A stretch of 64,000 bases of DNA from an uncultured candidatus Porisulfidus sp. (lineage in GTDB: Bacteria > Pseudomonadota > Gammaproteobacteria > Poriferisulfidales > Poriferisulfidaceae): NCBI GenBank assembly GCA_965199755.1, contig CBDASZ010000002.1, forward strand, positions 160,001-224,000, given 5' to 3'. The translations under genes were made by a program, and so were the position numbers. A model generated the notes under the pieces. The model ran no database searches. It saw only the letters and a list, made by a program, of their open reading frames with translations, and was not told the origin of the DNA. This document shows, piece after piece, positions 1 through 59,875 of the stretch (its first letter is position 1; the number at the start of each line of letters is the position of its first letter).

Positions 1-1080
1 AATGCCAAAACGCAAAGAGGAATCCGCAGCAGACTCAGATAGCCCATATGCCAGCAAAATTCTGGATGGCTCTACTGTATCTGAGTGACAGGCCGAGCCG
101 GAAGAAATCAAAAGGCCGTCGAAAGCATTGATCCACTCGTCACTTGATTTTCCTGGGAAGTACAAGTTCAAGATCCCAGGCACTCGGTGGTTCTTTTTAG
201 AGCTTCCGTTTAATTGAGTTTCCGGGTATATCTCGAATATCCCCGTAGTAAATTTTTTTGCTAAATGTTCGATTCGGTGCATGTCATCTTCTAGTTCTCT
301 CGCAATGATCTGACAAGTTTCGCCAAACCCAACACACAATGGCACAGGAAGTGTGCCTGAACGAAGTCCTAATTCCTGACCTCCACCGAAAACAACTGGC
401 CTTATTGCGCGTTGGGCATTCTTCCCGATGTATAAAGAGCCTATTCCCTTAGGGCCGTAAGCTTTATGCGCCGAAAGGGTTATTAGATCCCCTCCAATGT
501 CTTCTACATCAACCGGCAACTTTCCAAGTGATTGTGCACAGTCTGAATGGAATAGAACACCTCCCTGGTGGCAAAGCCTAGCGATTTCATTAACAGGCTG
601 GACTACCCCGGTTTCATTATTGACGTGCATTACGGTGACCAGAAGTGTAGCCTCTGAAATATGCTCCTCAAGTAAGTTGATATCAACGTGCCCTGAAGAT
701 TGGACTGGCAAAACTGTTACCTGTGTTCCTTCCACCCCCATGGCTCTGACAGTTTCCAAGACAGAACTGTGTTCGGTTTCCAATGTGATGATCTCGCGCC
801 TGTTCGAAGGCGCTGCTCTCACTAGTCCCTGAATAGCTATGTTGTTTGCTTCTGTCGCGCCAGATGTGAAAATTACGGCGCGGGGGTCTGCATTAATCGC
901 CTGCGCGATTTGGGATCGAGCCGTATTGACAGCCTTCTCCGCTCTTATACCAGCCAAGTGGTTATTTGAATGAGGATTAGCATAGATTTCTGTGAAATAC
1001 GGAGCCATAGCCTCGTACACACGCGGGTCCACTGGCGTAGAAGCAGGATAATCCAGATATATTGAGTTTGAGGAAAACAC
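1..1080 (-). CDS. Cysteine desulfurase, group I (IscS/DndA-like); 3' end lies outside the window
   Basis: Absent from the ORF track; translated by hand from GTG at 1080: VFSSNSIYLDYPASTPVDPRV..., PLP-lysine motif TLSAHKAYGPKGIG, catalytic motif ISSGSACHS, ...SLRFGI at the window edge. Confidence 0.93.
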   Translation of the reverse strand, partial: MFSSNSIYLDYPASTPVDPRVYEAMAPYFTEIYANPHSNNHLAGIRAEKAVNTARSQIAQAINADPRAVIFTSGATEANNIAIQGLVRAAPSNRREIITLETEHSSVLETVRAMGVEGTQVTVLPVQSSGHVDINLLEEHISEATLLVTVMHVNNETGVVQPVNEIARLCHQGGVLFHSDCAQSLGKLPVDVEDIGGDLITLSAHKAYGPKGIGSLYIGKNAQRAIRPVVFGGGQELGLRSGTLPVPLCVGFGETCQIIARELEDDMHRIEHLAKKFTTGIFEIYPETQLNGSSKKNHRVPGILNLYFPGKSSDEWINAFDGLLISSGSACHSDTVEPSRILLAYGLSESAADSSLRFGI

Positions 1081-1084
1081 TGTT

Positions 1085-2437
1085 TCAGTCAGTACAATCA
1101 CAAGGCAGTAGAGCCTCTGCCGACGGGATGTCGTCGGGTTCAATATCTTTCAGTATGCGGTATGTCCTCTGGGCATCCACTCCCCAGAACCCAATAGTTA
1201 CAGTTTCTTCACTAGATTGCTTTTGATCGGTAGAGCGCTTAACTGGTCTCCGCTGGTAACGTTCTTCTAAATCAGCCCACCATTCGACATCTGATGGGGT
1301 ATTGGGAACACTGCGCAATGCTACCGGCAGGCTTGCATCTAAACGTTTTATTTCGCGCTGGATAACAGGGATAGCATTCTCGCCTTTCATAAAGCAGTAA
1401 ACACAATTTGATAAGTTGCTTTGGTCCGGGAGTTCCAACTGCCACGGCCGAGCACTCCAATAATCCATTACTGCATCTTTATCGACTTCCGCATCGGCTA
1501 GCGGGGTGTACACGATCTCGCCATCCGGCAGATTTGCATTTCCTCGTTCTTGCTTATTTATTCCCTTGCGGTTCCGCTGCTTAACTCTGGAAACTCTCAT
1601 AGGTTCATCAGCCCTCAAGCCAATAAGAGAAACATATTCGATCGCTCCTGACCCTGTCATCGGCGCGGTATCCCCAAGACTCCGATCCGAAAACGCAGAT
1701 TTCATAATGTACCGCGCGCCAATCTCAGAAAAATCATCAAACTTCTGAGGCAAGCAGGCGGGAGGACACCGCCGAACATATTCTTTTTTACGCAAGAGTT
1801 CCTCATCTGCCATCATGCCGCGAGACTTCTTATGGCGAGCGATAACTTCTTCATCAGTTACTAAAGACTCTTGGCGATAGTGGCCTTTGTGAGTAGTAGT
1901 TTCTTTTGCTGCAAACCATTCGCAAAGAAAATTATTTGTTGTCGATAACTTCAGATTGGTAGTGCAAATTCTTGTGTGGCGACTTGGGAGAAACCCTGCT
2001 CTACTAACCATTTCTTCAAACACCTCCCCTTTATAGTGATAACCATCAGAGTTTTCTGGACTAAATGGTTCTTTGTTGACAAGACGAAATGAGTCATGCC
2101 TTGACCAGCCACCATGAGTAGCATCTTCGTATGAAGCGTATTCCAGCCAAAAAAAGGGAATTCCTGCCTGCTCTGTGTAGTCTGCACACTTTCGGACAAA
2201 ATCATACGTTGCAGGATGCTCAGCAGACGTGTTATTGAAAATTACAACATCTCCACGAATCGGATCGAAAACACCATGGTCGAGTAAGGCCATCAGCATC
2301 ATCCCGCTGGAACGTCCACCGGAAAATTTCACAACGTGCGGTAGTCCCTGATGTGATTTCGTTTCGTACTTGATACCCAAACCAGAATGGCTTTCCGCCT
2401 TTGGGGGTTGCGAAGCACTTGAAGAAGGCGATGACAT
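1085..2437 (-). CDS. PAPS reductase / adenine-nucleotide alpha hydrolase family protein (DndC/SspD/BrxP-like), Cys-rich
   Basis: PP-loop variant VVKFSGGRSS, RICTTNLK, IGLRADE, SNCVYCFMKG, C-terminal PCDCTD. Confidence 0.85.
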   Translation of the reverse strand: MSSPSSSASQPPKAESHSGLGIKYETKSHQGLPHVVKFSGGRSSGMMLMALLDHGVFDPIRGDVVIFNNTSAEHPATYDFVRKCADYTEQAGIPFFWLEYASYEDATHGGWSRHDSFRLVNKEPFSPENSDGYHYKGEVFEEMVSRAGFLPSRHTRICTTNLKLSTTNNFLCEWFAAKETTTHKGHYRQESLVTDEEVIARHKKSRGMMADEELLRKKEYVRRCPPACLPQKFDDFSEIGARYIMKSAFSDRSLGDTAPMTGSGAIEYVSLIGLRADEPMRVSRVKQRNRKGINKQERGNANLPDGEIVYTPLADAEVDKDAVMDYWSARPWQLELPDQSNLSNCVYCFMKGENAIPVIQREIKRLDASLPVALRSVPNTPSDVEWWADLEERYQRRPVKRSTDQKQSSEETVTIGFWGVDAQRTYRILKDIEPDDIPSAEALLPCDCTD

Positions 2438-3327
2438 TAGCTAGTTCCAGAAACAATCGGTACTATTTCACTTTTGATGATTTCCTTGACTTGCGGAGGG
2501 GAAAGTGCTCCCAGCGCCTGAGTCGCTGTATGTCGCCCTATCACATCAGCCAGAGTTCTGACTTTTTCTTTGGATCGTTCGTTTGATTCCGCCAGTTGAA
2601 TAATTAAAGCTGGGCGTATATTTTGGTCCCCGATTACAGTAAGGCGGCTCACCATTGACTCAATGAGCACTTCCCAGCGTGCTGATATCCGAAGTACTTC
2701 GGATAACTCTTGAGTGGTGAAAATACTGAAAATACGTTGTGCTTCAGTCGCGTAACGATGCCTCCACCAAGCTTTTGCCAATGGACAATCCAGGTATGTT
2801 GAGCGAGCACCCCTGTCTCTAATAATCCCTCCCAAACGTCTAAGGACATCACGAACACAACTCTCGATCTCTTTGGATCTTTTCTTGGACACACGCTCCT
2901 TATTTACAATCCTGTTAATGCGATCTCTGCCAGATTGTTTCTTTTTAGAAGTTGCTAAGAACGAACTTGAAATAAGTCCTTCCTCGATAAGTTCAACATG
3001 AATCCTCGCCCAAGCACCTGGCTGCGCCGCCATTGCCACAGGGAGATCTGCCCAGGTGCTGGCAATAACTTCCTCTGTAGACCATGGCAACTCCAAGTAT
3101 TCCGACTCCGACAGTTGGTAGGGTAAGACAGAGGGAGAGTTGCCCCTTGTCACCCCCCAAGAACGAACTATTGCACAGAATTCTTGCGAGTCTTCTGCAA
3201 CAATCTCAAGAAACTTAATTCGCTCTCTTTCCGAGCTTTGCAATTCCCTTTTGGACAGCAACACACCCTGAGCTTTCTCTAAACCTCTGTGCTCAATTGC
3301 TTGAATTTCACTAGACTGAATCAGCAT
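2437..3327 (-). CDS. Hypothetical protein, tentatively DUF6339-like
   Basis: 296-aa ORF overlapping both neighbours; segments DLPVAMAAQPGAWARIH, LAKAWW and LGALSPPQV recall DUF6339 blocks (from memory, unverified). Confidence 0.6.
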   Translation of the reverse strand: MLIQSSEIQAIEHRGLEKAQGVLLSKRELQSSERERIKFLEIVAEDSQEFCAIVRSWGVTRGNSPSVLPYQLSESEYLELPWSTEEVIASTWADLPVAMAAQPGAWARIHVELIEEGLISSSFLATSKKKQSGRDRINRIVNKERVSKKRSKEIESCVRDVLRRLGGIIRDRGARSTYLDCPLAKAWWRHRYATEAQRIFSIFTTQELSEVLRISARWEVLIESMVSRLTVIGDQNIRPALIIQLAESNERSKEKVRTLADVIGRHTATQALGALSPPQVKEIIKSEIVPIVSGTS

Positions 3328-4168
3328 TGCTTACTCCACTGAATTTGAACGGTCTAAACCTAGCGGCAGCTACCTCTGCATGGAAATCTTCGTTGTCCCA
3401 AGTAGCAATACCTTCGTTTTCTAGCATCGTGTGTAACTCTCTCAAAACAGGAAACTCTTCCCAGAGGTTCCCTGAACCTTCTTTTGAACCGTATTCCCGC
3501 CGAAGGATTTCGAATCCCACTGTCAGCGCACTAGTCAAAATGCCGTTCCTATAATCTCCCTGTCCTTCAGGAGGGGTCACCAGAAAGGAATATAGTTCAG
3601 GGTGTGCAGTGACCTTAAAGTGGAATCCTTCGCTAGAACTTTCCTCTACTTTATATTCACCGGGCTTTAATTCTCCCTTTGGATCTTCAAGTAGCCTCAA
3701 CAGACTTTCAAAAGTAGACCTAAATGCCCAGAACTGGTCAATAGCAAGAATAGTTCCAGAGCGCAATTGAATTTCTCGACCGTCCCAAATGCTATGGACT
3801 CCGTGTCTCTCAGTTGACAACTTTATATTTTGGGGTTCTGCCAGCTCAACTACAACAATAGGACGAATATATACGGGAGGAACAACTTCCGCCGCATCCC
3901 AAGAGACCTTTTGAGTGCATGATATTTCGCCTCGAATCTCGCTTTTTTCTATATGCCGGAACGTTGCATACGGAGAAGAAACCTCGACCGCGAATACAGC
4001 CTTGGACTCTTTCAGTAACGATGCAACCAAGTTTTTCCCTTGAATTTCATGTCTTACATCCATGCTGTGTTTATCATCTCCCTGATCAACTGATATGCGG
4101 TATGTGCTGTTGGCATAGTCCATCCGTGATTCCTCCAAGAGAGGCAGTACTGTCGTGCTTAATGTCAT
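3311..4168 (-). CDS. Hypothetical protein (~285 aa) in the GHKL operon
   Basis: Long ORF; likely start MTLSTT at 4168 forms an ATGA overlap with the upstream stop at 4165. Confidence 0.75.
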   Translation of the reverse strand: MTLSTTVLPLLEESRMDYANSTYRISVDQGDDKHSMDVRHEIQGKNLVASLLKESKAVFAVEVSSPYATFRHIEKSEIRGEISCTQKVSWDAAEVVPPVYIRPIVVVELAEPQNIKLSTERHGVHSIWDGREIQLRSGTILAIDQFWAFRSTFESLLRLLEDPKGELKPGEYKVEESSSEGFHFKVTAHPELYSFLVTPPEGQGDYRNGILTSALTVGFEILRREYGSKEGSGNLWEEFPVLRELHTMLENEGIATWDNEDFHAEVAAARFRPFKFSGVSNADSV

Positions 4169-6094
4169 TTGGAAGTCTCCTGTTTTGAGGTCGCACGCTT
4201 GATAACTTCGACTCGGACACTCCCATGACCAGGATGTTGGCATGGAACTTGTATATCCACCTCTTTACCCAAGTCTAATTTGCCCAGGTCAATAGATACG
4301 CGCTGACCATTCGCATCTTTGTGCACATTTTCGACGCGCTTCCCATCGAGAGTCGGGTCTCCGCAGATTTCCAAAAACTGATCTGCCGGCGGCGAATCAC
4401 AAGTTTTATCAGCACCACTTGCATGCACTAGTCGCAACTCTACGTTTCTGTTCTTTTCAAGAGGCTTAAGACGAATTTGCATGCCTCCATTTTCCCAAAC
4501 GGAAGCCTGTTGTACCTTCAAATGACTTCCATGGCGCTTTATAGGGCTTGGGTTTGGAGGATAAGGTCCTAGGCGCTCGCCACCAGGATAAACTTGCGGA
4601 TCAGGTTGGTTTTGGCGCTCTGGTCGGCCAACACTTCCTTTGGGAGACTTCGGGTTTTTCTCGCGCCCGCCGCCGGTAACTTCAACCGAGAAAAATCCCG
4701 GATCAATCTCACGAGCTTCTAACTCAGGAGCAAATTCGCGGAGTTGCGCGTGTATTTCTTGGAAAAGTTTGTCGAACTGCTCACGTTTTTTCGATGTTCC
4801 CTTTCGACCCAAACGCGAAAGGTCTAGATCTATGTGCCGAGGACCTTCGGCATCGCGGATTAAATTGCATGCCTCTCCTGCAAGATCAGGATCTAGCAGT
4901 ATAAGTGCATTGAAGGGTGCCGAGCGACCGAAATTTGCTGGCTGATTGAGATGAATGGCATTGGTGACCCACATCCCGTTTCTGTACAGTTGAAGATGGG
5001 TGCCCCCCCCCCCCCTCCATAAGTTCTGATGTGTACTGGCGGAAGGCCACAGGCACAGATCCAAATGAAGTTTCGATATTTATCCGATTGGCTTCATCTA
5101 GCGTAATTGCTGCGTCCCAAGCTTGTCTTCCACTTGGCCCAATTGAATGATTCTTCCTTCGAATACGCTCCTTATAGTTTTCGAGGATTTCCCGAAGCCT
5201 ATTCCGATCGATCACACTCTCTTCCCAAGAGGGTGCTTTAACATGAATGTTCATCTTCCCTGCATGAATAGCAGGAGCAAAATGAGTAGCCGAAACACGT
5301 TCAATTTCTCTCACTACTTCCTGATCATCATCATACCGGTTAAAGCGGTTGAAACCCAAGATCCCGACCACCGATCCGGTGCCATATTCCTCTTCGATCC
5401 AATCTAGTTTTTTGCTAATAATTTTAGGAACGTCTCCATCCCAATAGTACAGAAAACGGTCTATGAGATCTTCTTCAAGTTTCGCGACTAAAAAACCGTC
5501 TTTCCCATAGTTTTCCCCGTTCAGAGCATGTGTTGCGAGGATAGTTTGGCCTGCAGCAATTCGACGCTTCTTGCCATGTTGCTCGAACACACCTCCGTAC
5601 ACGATGTAGCGAAGATCTGATGCGGGGAATGTCGTCATATGTCCATTCCCATAAGACCCTGTCGATTTCTCATCAGACTTCGTGCTTGCCCCATCCGACA
5701 ACAAGCGATTCATATTATCGGGGCTCAGCCCAATTCCGTTATCCATGACCCAAAGTATTGATGATTTATCAGCGTCAAGGGTTTCCTGCATTGCATCCGT
5801 AATGCCTTTTGCTTGCTGCAAGGTTTTTGCCCTCCGCTGAGTCTCGATCGCGCCTTCAAAATGTTCTCTGTAGTTACTGATTACCGAGATAGACTTGGTC
5901 TTCATCTCTTCAATATGAAAATGAATGTGCGCGGTATCTGATCCCTTCTTTGCCTGAAGGAAAGCATCAAGACCGTTCTGAATCAATTCGCGAAGCAGTG
6001 TGTCAGGGTCAATATTGTTGACCATGGACAGACCTGTTGGCCGGAAGCCTTCCAGTGGCCCCGCTGGATGGAACTTTAAAGTCGGTTTAGCCAT
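4165..6094 (-). CDS. GHKL (HATPase_c/MORC/Hsp90-like) ATPase, frameshifted at a G13 tract (5003-5015); ~642 aa if one G is removed
   Basis: N-box LLRELIQNGLDA, G1 VMDNGIGL, G2 GSYGNGH; ORFs 4886-6094 and 4165-5064 join at MEGGG|GTHLQLYRNG. Confidence 0.8.
5003..5015. repeat. C13 homopolymer (G13 on the coding strand)
   Basis: Counted directly; coincides with the frame switch in the GHKL gene. Confidence 0.95.
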
Positions 6095-6112: not shown

Positions 6113-6379
6113 TTAAGGATTGGGTGCGAATGCTAGCATAGTCCAAAAGCGAGCGTGTGACAGTATTCCCCCATCATAGGTCCCACCTGTACCAAAACTA
6201 CCCAGTCCTGCCCAATCGCGACTTTTCCTCTCGATAATCTCAGCTAGTGCTTTCGCGTCCTTGATTAAGTCGGAAAATAATTTTTGGGCATCAGCGAATT
6301 TCTCGCAATAATCTTGATAGATCCGGTCCATCTCAAATAGGGGATCTACATAGGACAACCACTTCTGAACATCAGCCAT
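6113..6379 (-). CDS. Small hypothetical protein (possible gene fragment)
   Basis: 88-aa ORF, co-oriented and ending 18 bp before the GHKL start. Confidence 0.4.
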   Translation of the reverse strand: MADVQKWLSYVDPLFEMDRIYQDYCEKFADAQKLFSDLIKDAKALAEIIERKSRDWAGLGSFGTGGTYDGGILSHARFWTMLAFAPNP

Positions 6380-6380
6380 C

Positions 6381-6653
6381 TCAAGCAGGCCATGCTTGCC
6401 AGTATAGCGAAGTATGTTTTTTATTATGGCTTGCTTGAAGAGGAGGACGACGATTTTCTTCGTGGTAATCAGGCTGACATTTCATCAGTATATGCCTGAC
6501 CTCTGTCAGCACCAAAAAGGAAGTCACAGCACAAACATTACGAGTCCCATCATGGTCAAGCTCATCCGGCTCGGCTTCCTCGCGCCTAGCTAAATTATAC
6601 TTAAGTTGCTCAATGTATATTTTCAAAAGTTCTATATGGTCGCTCATGCTCAT
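6381..6653 (-). CDS. Small hypothetical protein (possible gene fragment)
   Basis: 90-aa ORF preceded by a GGAG-type RBS. Confidence 0.45.
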   Translation of the reverse strand: MSMSDHIELLKIYIEQLKYNLARREEAEPDELDHDGTRNVCAVTSFLVLTEVRHILMKCQPDYHEENRRPPLQASHNKKHTSLYWQAWPA

Positions 6654-6843
6654 GGTAGATCTCCCAAGTTATTCAGTAAATTATGGACGTATTACCCCTT
6701 TCTTCCCGTGCGTTATCAAATCACAAATTCACTCCATTTTATGTGATTTATAAGAGGGTTAAACACTGATTGGAGCCACATCGAGATTTTCTCGGAGTAG
6801 CTAATCCTCTTATATAATTACTTTTTGACTTTGGACATCTCTG

Positions 6844-9495: not shown

Positions 9496-11514
9496 TCAGC
9501 TCGCCATATCCAGCGACTCCTTGAAGGTGCGATCGTGAATCGCACGCGCCTGATCTCGCAACTTCGCGGCTTCCTCAAACTCCAGATCACGCGCATGGCG
9601 ATACATGCGTTTCTCCAGATCCTTGATTCTGGCGAGCGCCTCATCCGGGCTCAATATCGGCACCGGCTCCGCCACTTTGTCGCGTCCTTTCTGACGCCGT
9701 TTGCCCACCCGCACCGGCGCGGCCTCCAGAATATCGGCGACTTTCTTTTGGATGCCGCGCGGCGTGATGCCATGCTCTTTATTGAACTCTTGCTGCCGCC
9801 GTCGTCGCCGCTGCGTCTCATCAATCGCGCGACGCATGGAATCCGTCACCACATCAGCGTACAGAATCGCCCGCCCGTGCAGATGCCGTGCAGCGCGACC
9901 AATGGTCTGGATCAAGGAACGCTCCGAGCGCAGGAATCCTTCCTTGTCTGCATCGAGGACCGCCACCAGCGCCACCTCGGGAATGTCCAGTCCCTCGCGC
10001 AGCAGATTGATGCCGACCAATACATCGAACTCACCGCGACGCAGATCCTGAATGATCTCCACGCGCTCCACTGTGTCAATGTCGGAATGAAGATAGCGCA
10101 CACGCACGCCGTGCTCGCGCAAGTATTCGGTCAGATCTTCCGCCATACGCTTGGTCAGCGTGGTCACCAGCACCCGACTGCCCATCTCCACTATCTTGCC
10201 AATCTCTGACAGCAGATCATCCACCTGGGTGCGCACATCGCGCACTTCCACGGCCGGGTCAACCAGACCGGTCGGGCGCACAATCTGCTCCACTACCTGC
10301 CCCGCATGCTCGCCTTCATAAGGGCCGGGCGTGGCCGACACGAAGACCATCTGCGGCGACATGACTTCGAATTCCTCGAATTTCAGCGGTCGGTTGTCCA
10401 GCGCCGACGGCAACCGAAACCCGTAATCCACCAAATTCTTCTTGCGCGAGTAATCGCCGCGATACATGCCGCCGAATTGCGGAATGGTGACATGGCTTTC
10501 ATCCACAAACATCAGCGCATCCTCCGGCAGATAATCCAGCAGACACGGCGGCGGCTCGCCCGCGGCGCGCCCGGACAGATAGCGTGAGTAGTTCTCAATG
10601 CCCGCGCAGTACCCCAAAGTCTCAATCATCTCCAGGTCGTAGCGCGTGCGCTGCTCCAGACGCTGCGCCTCAACCAGCGCATCTTGCGCACGCAACAGCG
10701 CCAGATGCTCTTCCAGCTCCTCGCGAATCGAGACAACAGCTCGCTTCAGCACCTCCTCCGGTGTAACGTAATGCGTCTTGGGGTAAATAGTGAGACGCGG
10801 CACATCGCGCAGGATGTCACCGGTGAGCGGATCGAAGACACGCAACCGCTCGACTTCGTCATCAAGCAGTTCAATCCGTACCGCTTCGCGGTCGGAATCC
10901 GCCGGATGCACATCAATGACTTCGCCACGCGCGCGGAAGGCACCGCGGCGCAATTCTGTTTCATTGCGACTGTACTGCATTTCCGCCAACCGCCGCAGAA
11001 TCTTGCGCTGCCCGCTTCGATCGCCCCGATTCAGATGCAGCACCATCTGGTGATAGGACTTCGGATCGCCCAACCCGTAAATCGAGGACACGGTCGCGAT
11101 GATGATGGTGTCCGGGCGCTCGAACAGCGCCTTGGTTGCGGACAAACGCATCTGTTCGATGTGGTCGTTGACTGAGGCGTCTTTCTCAATGTAAGTGTCG
11201 GACGCCGGCACGTAGGCTTCCGGCTGATAATAGTCGTAATAGGAGACGAAGTACTCCACCGCGTTGCGCGGAAAGAACGTCTTCATTTCTCCGTACAACT
11301 GCGCGGCCAGTGTCTTGTTGTGCGCCAGCACAATGGTCGGGCGCTGCACCTGCTCGATGACTTGCGCCATGGTGTAGGTTTTGCCGGAGCCGGTCACCCC
11401 CAGCAAAGTCTGATGACTCAGACCGCTGCGCAGCCCACCCACCAGCGAATCAATCGCCTGCGGTTGGTCGCCCGCCGGCGCAAATTCAGAGTGAATGGCA
11501 AAGGGGTCGCTCAT
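9496..11514 (-). CDS. uvrB: Excinuclease ABC subunit B
   Basis: [39 protein letters not shown]-terminal UVR domain. Confidence 0.99.
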
Positions 11515-13823: not shown

Positions 13824-14510
13824 ATGCTTTGGGAAGACCCGGCCTCGCCTAATCCCCCGAAGATCACCGCCGACTCGGTAGATGTCCGCTATCGCATCCG
13901 CTGCCCGGCCTTGCCGGTCGATCACGCACACGCCCTGCATGGCGCCCTGCTTGCCGTGTGGCCGTGGCTGGAGGAGGACGAACGCGTCGGTATTCATACC
14001 ATTCATGGTGCGGAATCCGGCAATGGCTGGATTCGCCCGGACAACCCGGACAGTTATCTGCCTCTGTCGCGGCGTACCCGTCTGGTGCTGCGCCTCCCGC
14101 GCGAGCGGCTGCAAGCCGCGCAGGAACTCCGCGGCACCACCTTGCATCTGGGCGCGGACACGCTGGAGGTGGGTGACGCGAACTTGCATCCATTGCAGGT
14201 GCATGAGACGGTGTTCGCGCGTTACATAGCGCTGGAATCCGAGCAGGAAGATGATTTCCTGCAGCAATGCGCCGCACTGTTGAACGAACAGGGCATTGAC
14301 GCGCCACGCATGCTGGCGGGACGCGCGCATACGGTGGCCTGCGGCGAGACGCCGTTGCACTGCCGCAGCCTGATGCTCGACGGTCTGAAACCGCAAACCT
14401 CGATACAGTTGCAGGAACAGGGACTGGGCCCGCATCGACTGCTGGGCTGCGGGCTGTTTTTGCCGCACAAAAGTATTGCGCCAGTCGGCTCGGCAGCCGA
14501 TCTGGAATAA
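13824..14510 (+). CDS. cas6: Orphan Cas6 (type I-MYXAN Cmx6-like RAMP protein)
   Basis: LPVDHAHALHGAL, VGIHTIHG, C-terminal Gly-rich loop QEQGLGPHRLLGCGLFLP. Confidence 0.85.
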   Translation: MLWEDPASPNPPKITADSVDVRYRIRCPALPVDHAHALHGALLAVWPWLEEDERVGIHTIHGAESGNGWIRPDNPDSYLPLSRRTRLVLRLPRERLQAAQELRGTTLHLGADTLEVGDANLHPLQVHETVFARYIALESEQEDDFLQQCAALLNEQGIDAPRMLAGRAHTVACGETPLHCRSLMLDGLKPQTSIQLQEQGLGPHRLLGCGLFLPHKSIAPVGSAADLE

Positions 14511-58246: not shown

Positions 58247-58603
58247 TCAGGAAGAGGCACCGAGCACTTCAAGTTCGACCACCATATGCTTGGATAAGGG
58301 CATCCCACTACCCGCGGTGTCACTTTCCATTAACTCGCTCGACGATGGGCCGTACGGAATAAACGCCATGCCGTCCGGTAAATCCTCGTCCTTGCGCGGC
58401 TTGCCGCACACCACCTCGACCGTTCCGGTCGGGCAGGACAGGCGCACCTTGTCACCGACGCTCAGATCGAGCCGGGCCATCAGGCTCTCGTTCAACTCCA
58501 GCGTTGAGGTGACGGTCTGATACTCCTCCTTGAGCTTGCCTCCATTGAGGGAGGTGCCCTGCTTGTTCGACCGTCCTGGAATCAGGATCAACTGTTCGGG
58601 CAT
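58247..58603 (-). CDS. fwdD: Formylmethanofuran dehydrogenase subunit D (molybdopterin dinucleotide-binding)
   Basis: ILIPGRSNKQG, GMAFIPYGP, TAGSGMP; directly upstream of fwdB. Confidence 0.85.
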   Translation of the reverse strand: MPEQLILIPGRSNKQGTSLNGGKLKEEYQTVTSTLELNESLMARLDLSVGDKVRLSCPTGTVEVVCGKPRKDEDLPDGMAFIPYGPSSSELMESDTAGSGMPLSKHMVVELEVLGASS

Positions 58604-58865
58604 GGCCACATCGTGCGGCTTCTGTAGGAAGCACGGATTATACAGGATACCCCGCAAGCGCTATAAGGATTGCAGGGTGTGGTGCGGGTGGGGATTTTCG
58701 ACTTGAACGGTGTCGGCAGCACTGAAAGAATTGACCACTCTACCACTGCAGATTCAGATTGATCCGCGCACCACTACCATCGCTGTGGCTGGTAAACGCT
58801 TCCACACCCAGGTAGCGCAGAGGCTAGGCCGCCGGAAAGGCTAGAAAGAGTGTCACGGGGGCTTG

Positions 58866-58879
58866 CCCCCCCCCCCCCC
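58866..58879. repeat. C14 homopolymer, part of a GGGGG-CTTG-CCCCC hairpin
   Basis: Counted directly in the truB-fwdD intergenic region. Confidence 0.9.
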
Positions 58880-58981: not shown

Positions 58982-59875
58982 TCAGTCCAGAGGCAGCAGA
59001 CGTTTCGGGCGCAAAAGACCTTCGGCATCTGCTTCGCCCAAACCCAGAAAATCCCCCTGCTCCGTATACAACCGAACTGGCCCGGACCGCCCAGAATCCA
59101 CCACCACGCGCCCTTCCTTTAACGCGCACCCCTCCTGCATCGTGCAGTGATATTGCGGCCAGTCGGGCAAGCCGTCTTCATCCGGCAGCAAGCGAGCCAT
59201 CCGCGCAGCCTCAGAAAGTGCCTCCAGATCATCCAGACGCATGGCCTGAGCCACATCGAATGGCCCCACCCGCAGGCGCCGCAAACTTCGAACATAGGCA
59301 CCACAGCCCAACGCCTCACCCAGATCCGCTCCCAGTGTCCGCACATACAATCCCTTGCTGGCGTCGACTTCAAGCTCCCATTCATCGCCGCGCGCCGTAT
59401 ACAATTCCAGACGCCGCACTTCCACTGTGCGCGGCTGACGCGCCACCACTTCGCCGCGCCGCGCCAAACGATACAGCCGCGTGCCGTCAATCTGCACCGC
59501 CGAATACATCGGCGGAATCTGCTGAATGGAGCCACGAAACCGCGCAAGCACAGCCTCAATTTCCGCAGCGCTCAACTCCGGCACCGGATTCGGTGAGGCT
59601 TGCTCCACCTCTCCTTCGCTGTCCTGCGTTGCGGTGCGCACACCCAAACACAACGTAAAACGATATGACTTCTGTGCGTCCAGCAAATAACCGCACCAGC
59701 GCGTGGTCGCCCCCACCGCGATCACCAGCAAACCCTCCGCCAAAGGATCCAGCGTGCCGGTATGCCCTACACGTTGCACTGAAAACAAACGCTTGACGCG
59801 CGCGACCACGCGCGCGGAACTCGGCCCGGATTCCTTGTCGAGCAGCAACCAGCCAGACGGTGTCTTCGCGGTCAC
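58982..59875 (-). CDS. truB: tRNA pseudouridine(55) synthase
   Basis: LLLDK, GHTGTLDPLA, QIPPMYSA, SKGLYVRTL. Confidence 0.97.
   Translation of the reverse strand: MTAKTPSGWLLLDKESGPSSARVVARVKRLFSVQRVGHTGTLDPLAEGLLVIAVGATTRWCGYLLDAQKSYRFTLCLGVRTATQDSEGEVEQASPNPVPELSAAEIEAVLARFRGSIQQIPPMYSAVQIDGTRLYRLARRGEVVARQPRTVEVRRLELYTARGDEWELEVDASKGLYVRTLGADLGEALGCGAYVRSLRRLRVGPFDVAQAMRLDDLEALSEAARMARLLPDEDGLPDWPQYHCTMQEGCALKEGRVVVDSGRSGPVRLYTEQGDFLGLGEADAEGLLRPKRLLPLD

Follow-up and report, generated by a model that had tools for sequence, protein, structure and literature searches.

A candidate DNA phosphorothioation locus that joins an SspD-like sulfur enzyme to a PDC-M33-like GHKL ATPase trio

Can the sulfur chemistry of DNA phosphorothioation (PT) be carried by a DNA-engaging machine other than those of the described systems? 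This question is raised by a six-gene operon that begins at the left end of a 64,000-nucleotide stretch of DNA (the window, positions 160001-224000 of contig C2) from the four-contig, 1.39-Mb genome of an uncultured gammaproteobacterium assigned to candidatus Porisulfidus, and that continues beyond the left edge of the window into DNA which we fetched separately (L002). The open reading frames (ORFs) listed for the window and the left-hand DNA place all six genes, here named g1 to g6 in operon order, co-oriented on the minus strand, with g6 outside the window. The answer that we consider probable is that these genes form a DNA modification-restriction island whose writer represents a new PT architecture, in which a clamp made of the g1, g2 and g3 proteins holds the sulfur enzyme g4, g6 is the effector, and a run of 13 G residues inside g1 (G13) serves as a switch.

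According to the mechanism that we propose, the desulfurase g5 would draw sulfur from cysteine, and g4 with its five invariant cysteines would activate the DNA backbone with ATP and insert the sulfur. The g1-g2-g3 complex, a GHKL ATPase clamp with two partners, would engage and select the DNA, hold g4 through g3 and thereby stand in for DndD/DndE or SspB/SspC. g6, a DUF262-HNH nuclease, would act as the effector that tells marked self from unmarked invader DNA, and slippage in G13 would toggle the system, with the genome of the window reading OFF. Observed directly are the genes and their conservation, the homology of g4 to SspD, the catalytic motifs, the PT-dependent effectors in the vicinity and the pattern of the tracts. 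PT as the product, a requirement for the trio in writing, the manner in which g6 would distinguish self from invader and switching of the tract in vivo are inferred.

The argument for a sulfur enzyme is carried by g4 (positions 1085..2437, minus strand), which we assign as an SspD-like PP-loop ATP pyrophosphatase and Cys-rich sulfurtransferase of the phosphoadenosine phosphosulfate (PAPS) reductase superfamily. A profile-profile alignment with hhalign, in which SspD was represented by nine proteins pulled from genomes with the PADLOC SspD model, joined g4 and SspD with a probability of 98.4% and an E-value of 6.6e-15 over 183 columns. Both share the PP-loop SGGxxS and the motifs LPSxxxRxCTxxxKL, GxRxDE and SxCxxCF, and both families contain five invariant cysteines in a 1+2+2 arrangement (C158, C345/C348 and C446/C448 in g4; C88, C173/C176 and C270/C273 in SspD); invariant within the g4 family are KFSGGxxS, C158, C345xxC348 and C446xC448. 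The g4 protein is about 170 residues longer than SspD, has a C-terminus of its own and carries two inserts without SspD counterpart, at roughly residues 95-135 and 187-265. Among the curated models the window protein matched SspD at 4.6e-8 (in a stretch of 34 residues only), BrxP at 5.2e-5 (64 residues) and DndC at 1.6e-4, and because the SspD match of PADLOC is confined to those 34 residues we regard g4 as a distant homolog of SspD and not as its ortholog. The DndC model TIGR03183 scored 0.0024, far below its cut-off, and PAPS_reduct 0.012; the nearest named cluster in the ESM Atlas was PAPS_reduct (0.94). When 1.84 billion cluster representatives were searched with a profile, 222 matched g4 at E<=1e-30, fragments included. 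The closest homolog, P0005, is 84% identical. Among the best 120 matches of another search none bore a functional name, those named by their source being hypothetical proteins. Entries of 14-3-3 proteins in the structure search with g4 proved to be a His-tag artefact and were discarded.

Does this enzyme then belong to one of the known systems? The first-pass annotation of the window, made from the letters alone, had found none of the usual Dnd, Ssp or BREX (bacteriophage exclusion) partners recognisable, and model searches agree: DndB, DndD, DndE, SspB, SspC, SspE, BrxC and PglZ had no match to any ORF of the island at E<=0.1, the BrxL model had none among these ORFs, Pfam detected no DUF4007, and the PADLOC and other profile models searched with the ORFs gave no complete Dnd, Ssp or BREX system. 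The locus resembles Ssp in its SspA-type desulfurase (g5), its SspD-homologous enzyme (g4) and the DUF262-plus-nuclease effector within the operon (g6), and one related locus (L006) contains a true SspE. It differs from Ssp in that a GHKL ATPase and two proteins without a recognised fold are found instead of SspB, a DUF4007 nickase, and SspC, a BrxC-like P-loop protein, and in that g6 matches HEC-05 and not the models of SspE, which combines DUF262 with DUF1524. Nor is the desulfurase an Ssp-specific feature, since g5 matches SspA and DndA equally well. From Dnd the locus is set apart by the lack of matches to DndB, to the ABC ATPase DndD and to DndE and by its weak match to DndC, and from BREX type 4 by a BrxP match that is only partial and by the lack of matches to BrxC, PglZ and BrxL.

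A more general likeness extends to BREX types 4 and 1, with BrxP and PglX respectively, and to the DndD-DndE core, which by the accessible text of PMC12839542, PMC12914056 and PMC10853773 are ATPase-centred platforms whose modifier is either a methylase or an enzyme of the PAPS-reductase type; here, however, the platform would be a GHKL ATPase trio and neither BrxC/PglZ/BrxL nor an ABC ATPase with DndE. With TdpABC, which we compared by its description in the accessible text of PMC12914056 only, the locus shares a PAPS-reductase-type writer and the lack of a recognisable nickase, but differs in that g4 is linked to three more genes. In the present system no nickase was recognised in fold searches that covered g2 and g3, which would agree with a backbone activated directly, as the title of the Tdp publication suggests for Tdp; TdpC is described as writing PT by itself through an adenylated intermediate.

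The same source, as far as its text is accessible, counts four established PT systems, namely dnd, ssp, tdp and BREX type 4 (PMC12914056, January 2026), and its survey required a P-loop NTPase beside the DndC/SspD homolog, so that by this description a GHKL-based writer could not have been found by it. We found no paper on this gene combination, on DUF6339, on PDC-M33 or on GHKL proteins with phosphorothioation in a literature search that left aside most subscription journals and supplements, among the latter those of PMC12914056 (with DndC/SspD homolog neighbourhoods, which could list the family), PMC10853773 and PMC12839542. In the accessible text of PMC10853773 no mention of GHKL, MORC or PAPS was found, and in that of PMC2292703 none of PAPS or Dnd. 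Judged by sequence, the locus is part of no described Dnd, Ssp or BREX type 4 system, nor, as far as the description allows a comparison, of Tdp.

Whether the genes belong together was assessed in 80 loci containing g4, 12 from genomes and 68 from metagenomes, which were fetched and scored with profiles of g1 to g4. All four genes occur together in 55 of them. The other 25 comprise 18 loci cut by a contig end beside g4, five with a short PP-loop-like match that are non-members, one without a match, and L012, where a whole g4 (9896-11242) with 10 kb of DNA on each side shows no trio at a threshold as loose as E<=10. Relatives contributed eight more loci, namely six complete sets, one set cut at g2, and a solitary g4 (L113, 9150-10541) that sits on a 1.5-kb islet of about 55% GC in DNA of 72-82% GC; this latter GC content is odd for a genome that is labelled as of the same genus as the 58%-GC host of the window. 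Hosts of the gene set are Alpha- and Gammaproteobacteria, Thermodesulfobacteriota and Nitrospirales.

The arrangement of the genes is conserved in two circular permutations, with g4, then always followed by g5 where this gene is present, either after or before the trio, whose order is always g1-g2-g3 with g2 in the middle. Most frequent are g1-g2-g3-g4 (19 of the 55 complete loci) and g4-g1-g2-g3 (17), followed by g4-g5-g1-g2-g3 (9), g4-g5-g6-g1-g2-g3 (3), g1-g2-g3-g4-g5 (3), the full order of the window, g1-g2-g3-g4-g5-g6 (2), and two other orders with one locus each. g5 is found in 18 and a g6-type gene in 7 of the 55. Since the set of g1 to g4 is maintained through circular permutation and across phyla, there is strong evidence in these sequences that the four genes represent one functional unit. 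The proposal of the first-pass annotation that the locus is a distinct sulfur-modification architecture with a GHKL module has thus gained from the co-occurrence in 55 of 80 loci and from the failure of any described system to match fully; in the neighbourhoods, a survey of which had been suggested for its five-gene order, g1 to g4 co-occur and g5 is optional. We regard the locus as a new conserved combination, as judged from sequence, of a PDC-M33-like trio and an SspD-like enzyme with or without a desulfurase and with or without a nuclease. Within the host genus a g4 homolog is present in 6 of the 15 genomes searched, most of them 38-45% identical, and such a patchy, divergent spread is typical of defence genes.

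The genes that accompany the unit provide a second line of evidence for its chemistry. g5, a cysteine desulfurase of the SspA/DndA/IscS type, occupies positions 1..1143 (minus strand) and is open at the window edge; the part within the window matches Aminotran_5 at 5e-78, SspA at 4.2e-132 and DndA at 2.6e-131, and the full protein (L002 13878-15143) matches the PADLOC models of SspA and DndA at 1.2e-137 and 4.4e-137, respectively. Extension of the contig to the left recovered, besides the whole of g5 and the end of the island, the gene g6 on the same strand (L002 12121-13881, equivalent to window positions -1879 to -119), and the earlier guess that an effector gene might lie beyond the left edge was right: g6 encodes a DUF262-HNH nuclease of 586 amino acids with matches to GmrSD_N (DUF262; 3.3e-23) and HEC-05 (1.4e-19), an HNH-like C-terminus, and the motifs DGQQR and HHxFP...N...N...H (His-Me) that are invariant in eight homologs. 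The search of solved structures with g6 gave only a weak match to the DUF262 entry 7p9k (BrxU; 0.017). A g6-type gene inside the operon was found, besides the 7 complete loci, in four of the eight further loci of relatives.

In Dnd and Ssp systems a constant writer is combined with exchangeable effectors. A comparable exchange is seen here: in L006 a full-length SspE (3.8e-209) follows g5 in the position of g6; seven loci contain, next to the module, genes for a PbeA-like helicase (5.9e-146), a PbeC-like ATPase and a partner of 689 amino acids, and in one of these, L112, this Pbe-like set is placed between g4 and g1; and further loci have DUF262-HNH or HNH_2 genes nearby. By the accessible parts of the respective sources, SspE is the PT-recognising effector of Ssp (mBio 2026) and PbeABCD partners the PT made by DndCDEA (Pbe paper). 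These neighbours, like the homology to SspD, point to phosphorothioation as the likely chemistry. In two loci of symbionts g3 is immediately followed by a PD-Lambda-5_A-like gene (2.2e-27; L009 14874-15959 and L014 5176-6282), another candidate effector. In one clade (L061/L062 11121-13591; L065 5203-7718) g4 is followed by a RibD-like deaminase/reductase gene, with matches to dCMP_cyt_deam_1 (7.4e-12) and RibD_C, and by two conserved genes.

What, then, are the proteins that take the place of the usual partners? g1 (4165..6094, minus strand) encodes a GHKL (Bergerat-fold) ATPase of the PDC-M33A family and is split by one frameshift into two ORFs, 4886-6094 and 4165-5064. It matches HATPase_c_3 weakly (3.7e-4), the sacsin-type ATP-binding domain at 1.8e-7, and the PADLOC model PDC-M33A, which hits the N-terminal piece at 6e-18 and a homolog with an intact frame at 3e-28; in a PT-type g1 of 643 residues the alignment with this model ends at about residue 470. 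Across the g1 alignment the GHKL signatures, namely the N box (ExxxNxxDA), DxGxG and the glycine-rich lid, are nearly invariant, and the window copy keeps them as ELxQNxLDA, DNGxG and GSxGxGH. Solved structures gave weak GHKL matches only (Topo VI-B, MORC and PMS2, E of 0.15 or worse), and the nearest ESM Atlas clusters are all unnamed. g2 (3311..4243 with a likely start at 4168, minus strand) matches PDC-M33B at 2.9e-8. Its AlphaFold2 model, built like that of g3 on an alignment of 46-50 sequences, has a mean predicted local distance difference test score (pLDDT) of 86.7 and shows an N-terminal beta-sandwich and a helical C-terminal part, for which the profile found no solved relative, Foldseek against the Protein Data Bank returned nothing at E<=0.001, and VIA-align wide gave generic Fn3-like sandwiches only (best Z 7.5).

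g3 (2437..3327, minus strand) is an all-alpha protein (pLDDT 93.1) that we consider a distant relative of DUF6339 and PDC-M33C and the predicted docking partner of g4. DUF6339 matches the window protein at 0.023, below the Pfam cut-off, and within the family it reaches E<=0.01 in 14 of 46 proteins (best 1.1e-8); the PDC-M33C model matches neither the window g3 nor its homolog in L010. Foldseek found nothing at E<=0.001 for g3 either, VIA-align wide reached Z 5.8 at best and over the last ~85 residues only (AAA-lid-like helices), and by the notes of this tool Z values of the size obtained for g2 and g3 may reflect merely a common arrangement; we present neither protein as a new fold. The designed repeat proteins that were the only solved structures returned with the g3 profile were rejected. 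Taken together, g1 and g2 are, and g3 probably is, distant members of the unvalidated PADLOC candidate PDC-M33, in which A is a GHKL ATPase and C is DUF6339. The GHKL ATPase and the two proteins that the first-pass annotation called unknown are not unprecedented.

A direct link between the trio and the sulfur enzyme is suggested by complex prediction. When g2, g3 and g4 were modelled together with g4 as the scored partner, the complex score was 0.69 (0.69, 0.69 and 0.72 in three runs), the best of three controls reaching 0.00; in the calibration of this score 58 of 80 solved complexes and 2 of 110 mismatched pairs attained the mark, figures that apply only roughly to our set-up of three chains with alignments of our own. 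At least 95% of the contacts are common to the runs, the pLDDT of the partner is 80-81, and all confident contacts connect g3 residues 70-84, 132-139 and 213 with g4 residues 105-111, 183-192 and 253-259. The face on g4 lies in or beside the family-specific inserts and includes the invariant E104, G185 and H186, and that on g3 includes the conserved E74/E76, P81 and T84. The model supports, as a prediction, the binding of g4 to g3, and we read this as a sign that the sulfur enzyme may have acquired a docking surface for the trio platform. It also lends support to the idea, put forward at first sight of the locus, that DNA would be engaged by the GHKL module so that sulfur can be transferred to it.

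But the trio also occurs elsewhere. DUF6339 is rare, being present in one of 401 genomes sampled from the phylum. In this genome (G184, locus L084) a C5-cytosine methylase (PF00145, 1.7e-63) lies directly upstream of the trio on the same strand, followed by PDC-M33A (2.2e-91), PDC-M33B (2.1e-38) and PDC-M33C (8.5e-37), the last being DUF6339 (Pfam, 3e-40). An ATPase of the PDC-M33 type is found on 23 plasmid records. Of the four that we inspected, three have an annotated DNA cytosine methyltransferase in the vicinity of the trio and two an annotated DUF6339, the fourth being cut by the end of the record; the methylase lies within about 2.5 kb of the trio on the Deinococcus, Priestia and Halobaculum plasmids. 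The window locus resembles these canonical loci in its A and B matches, in the DUF6339 of the g3 family and in the A-B-C order, and the two types have a small upstream protein in common. They differ in that the canonical loci lack g4 and g5 and stand beside C5-cytosine methylases, and in that the matches of the window proteins are distant, with no PDC-M33C match for g3. The small protein, of 71-76 amino acids and without family match, precedes the system in 14 PT-type loci (e.g. L035 1127-1342) and the trio on the Priestia and Deinococcus plasmids (L086 5671-5901 and L085 5690-5920, respectively) with 43-57% identity between PT-type loci and plasmids and between phyla; it is absent from the genome of the window.

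Since PDC-M33 occurs without a sulfur enzyme and beside methylases, the trio may be either a chemistry-independent platform or itself an arm of interference. By analogy with BREX type 1 versus type 4 and with the DndD-DndE core, it would thus be a platform that occurs with methyl or with sulfur chemistry. The other possibility is a restriction-modification-like pair with a swapped marker, in which g4 and g5 write the mark alone and the trio, dispensable for writing, interferes; we hold this to be rather unlikely. C5-cytosine methylases of this kind carry their own target recognition, and this, together with the existence of the canonical trio without g4 and its position beside methylases in G184 and on plasmids, speaks for an interference arm. 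So does the lack of a g6-type gene in 48 of the 55 complete loci, as another part must then interfere if these loci defend, and the report that TdpC alone suffices for PT synthesis (accessible text of PMC12914056). Then again, we found no nuclease fold in g2 or g3, PT-dependent effectors such as SspE and Pbe have been recruited beside the module as they are to complete writers, and the predicted g3-g4 interface on g4-specific inserts suggests a physical coupling of writer and trio. Moreover, on the three plasmids the methylase is located outside the trio operon, and that of Priestia is paired with a MutH/Sau3AI-type endonuclease. The two views could also be combined in a BREX-like manner, with one complex that both writes and excludes.

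The proposed writer of the PT mark is itself found joined to methylases. In P0154 (823 amino acids) the N-terminal half matches M.HhaI at 9.2e-35 and g4 covers residues 389-823, P0271 (797 amino acids) consists of PF00145 followed by g4, and in P0149 and P0146 a partial C5-cytosine methylase is fused to a g4-type enzyme. These natural fusions suggest that g4 acts on DNA. Phage-collection matches of such a Dcm-g4 fusion protein cover the methylase half only, and the phage and plasmid collections hold a single weak plasmid match to g4. As C5-cytosine methylases flip out their target cytosine, the fusions could also be taken to mean that g4 makes another sulfur mark, a thiolated DNA base such as cytosine or a thiolated RNA, in the manner of TtcA, ThiI or MnmA, which would still be epigenetic defence but not PT. 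The distance of g4 from all curated DndC, SspD and BrxP models and the PP-loop activity shared with tRNA thiolases, as stated in the accessible text of the BREX-4 paper, fit this explanation too. We nevertheless consider it improbable, because the best profile match of g4 is SspD, with the same motif and cysteine pattern, because its partners SspE and Pbe are known from PT systems alone, and because no RNA-related gene recurs in the neighbourhoods of the loci.

If the locus encodes a PT writer, why is its ATPase gene broken? The two g1 ORFs overlap by 179 nucleotides, and the switch of frame falls in G13 (coding strand; window 5003..5015, minus strand), which leaves g1 out of frame, as 12 or 15 G would not. 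Read through, g1 would give about 640 amino acids, and both pieces align end to end with intact homologs of 630-655. Against first-order Markov expectation for the whole genome, runs of G or C are bimodal: 14 of length 7 were observed (85.5 expected), 2 of length 8 (20.4), none of length 9-10 (about 6) and 9 of length 11-16 (0.36), so that runs of at least 11 are 25 times over expectation and those of 7-10 are depleted. The nine long runs (C1:137170, 137446, 142479 and 850197; C2:9879, 131557, 165003, which is window 5003, 218866, which is window 58866, and 266339) fall in two genes of Type ISP restriction-modification systems (the first with two runs and in frame, the second disrupted at its run), next to a fragment of a Type ISP specificity domain, in an in-frame Dam-like methylase gene, in a heptosyltransferase fragment and in g1, two being without a clear gene link. 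They look like the set of contingency loci of a 1.39-Mb sponge symbiont. The run at window 58866-58879 (C14) is intergenic and lies between truB (58982-59875, minus strand), whose stop precedes it by 103 nucleotides, and an ORF of 136 amino acids (58247-58657) that follows about 200 nucleotides further on.

Two congeners with the same six-gene order, G409 (L118) and G413 (L119), carry runs at a different place in g1, directly after a start codon (C19 at 13957-13975 and C20 at 5484-5503, respectively), and runs of 10-28 occur in four other loci, either inside the system or at most about 500 nucleotides away from it. A contig of another study has the same tract length of 13, and a further assembly is broken precisely at this position; raw reads over the region (6 and 70 in two sets, about 1-2x depth) include almost none across the tract. 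The frame that the first-pass annotation thought in need of repair therefore looks less like damage than like a tract for phase variation. G13 is likely to be a slipped-strand phase-variation tract, from which we would expect switching in vivo. Loss of the modification is tolerated in Ssp systems and toxic in Dnd systems, and an OFF writer would be tolerable where the effector needs the mark to act, as is reported for SspE.

Alternatively, the frameshift would be due to the ordinary loss of a gene from the small genome of a symbiont or to an assembly error in the homopolymer, the locus being an inactive, decaying relic. Such an explanation can draw on the out-of-frame g1 in a genome of only 1.39 Mb, on the solitary g4 remnants in L012 and L113 and on the tracts of the window, L118 and L119, all of which are one base too long. 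Yet the only disruption of g1 coincides with the run, and the five remaining genes are intact with their invariant motifs. Long runs are in excess and intermediate ones depleted, the location of the long runs in classic contingency genes, of which some are in frame, argues against a uniform sequencing bias, and the tract length recurs in the contig of another study. We therefore regard a relic as very improbable.

Several of our observations weigh against the reading of the locus as a PT island with a GHKL-based writer. The assignment of PT rests on homology and neighbouring genes; g4 fits the curated models weakly, only 19 of 48 family members match PAPS_reduct at E<=0.01 and 29 do not, and the g4 profile found no relative among solved structures. 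g4 occurs without the trio in L012 and L113, 37 of the 55 complete loci lack g5 and 48 a g6-type gene, and the g6 of the window has no match to SspE models. The trio, in turn, exists without any sulfur enzyme as PDC-M33, so that its core role would not be sulfur transfer as such, and fold searches with the g2 and g3 models recognised neither a nickase nor a nuclease. The prediction of the g3-g4 contact used a set-up, with alignments of our own and three chains, that differs from its calibration. Finally, a homopolymer sequencing bias may underlie the three tracts of one base over the in-frame length, although the in-frame state of some long runs in the window genome speaks against a bias that is uniform.

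A wider view, which goes beyond the PT island favoured above and which we put forward tentatively, as something we would not yet bet on, is that the trio is an epigenetic writer platform indifferent to the chemistry it serves. Different lineages would plug in either a C5-cytosine methylase or the SspD-like enzyme; g4 would dock on the DUF6339 protein via its specific inserts and constitute a fifth route to PT, without a P-loop ATPase or a recognisable nickase; and G/C tracts in g1 would switch it as a phase-variable sulfur phasevarion of sponge symbionts. A fifth PT architecture, if true, would mean that the sulfur enzyme is a portable module for different DNA-scanning machines, and it would offer a first functional handle on the PADLOC orphan candidate PDC-M33 and on DUF6339 as well as a compact gene set for probing how target sites of backbone sulfur are chosen. 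Phase-variable PT, if true, would widen the phasevarion idea from methylation to backbone modification, in a setting of uncultured sponge symbionts in which, to go by the 6 of 15 congeners, the g4 family is common.

The layout of the operon is compact, in agreement with the co-oriented, almost gapless genes on an AT-richer island that were noted at the outset. g1 (stop at 4165) overlaps g2 by 4 bp if the latter starts at 4168, which is Met-26 of the listed ORF and the residue at which its homologs begin; the overlap amounts to 17 bp between g2 and g3 and to 1 bp between g3 and g4, and g6 overlaps the end of g5 by 4 bp. A GTG at 1080 as the start of g5 would leave a gap of 4 bp to the end of g4 at 1085, the listed TTG at 1143 overlapping g4. 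The GC content is 45-49% from position 1 to about 6500-6700 and about 57-63% beyond. Between the operon and purE, and still within the island, lie two small ORFs of 88 and 90 amino acids (6113..6653, minus strand), which have no family match, are not conserved with the system and are unrelated to the conserved protein of 71-76 amino acids that precedes the system elsewhere. The borders of the island showed neither a flanking direct repeat nor an att-like site, promoter-like sites within it do not exceed the level of shuffled sequence, and a terminator was not found there. DNA of the window stretch is present in sequencing runs that are labelled, by their run labels only, as sponge metagenome. 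To the right the island ends before purE and purK, and to the left it extends 1.9 kb past the window edge up to a tRNA-Pro/Arg/His/Lys cluster, beyond which the first gene of core GC content encodes a metallo-beta-lactamase-fold protein (L002 10893-11645; Lactamase_B, 4e-20).

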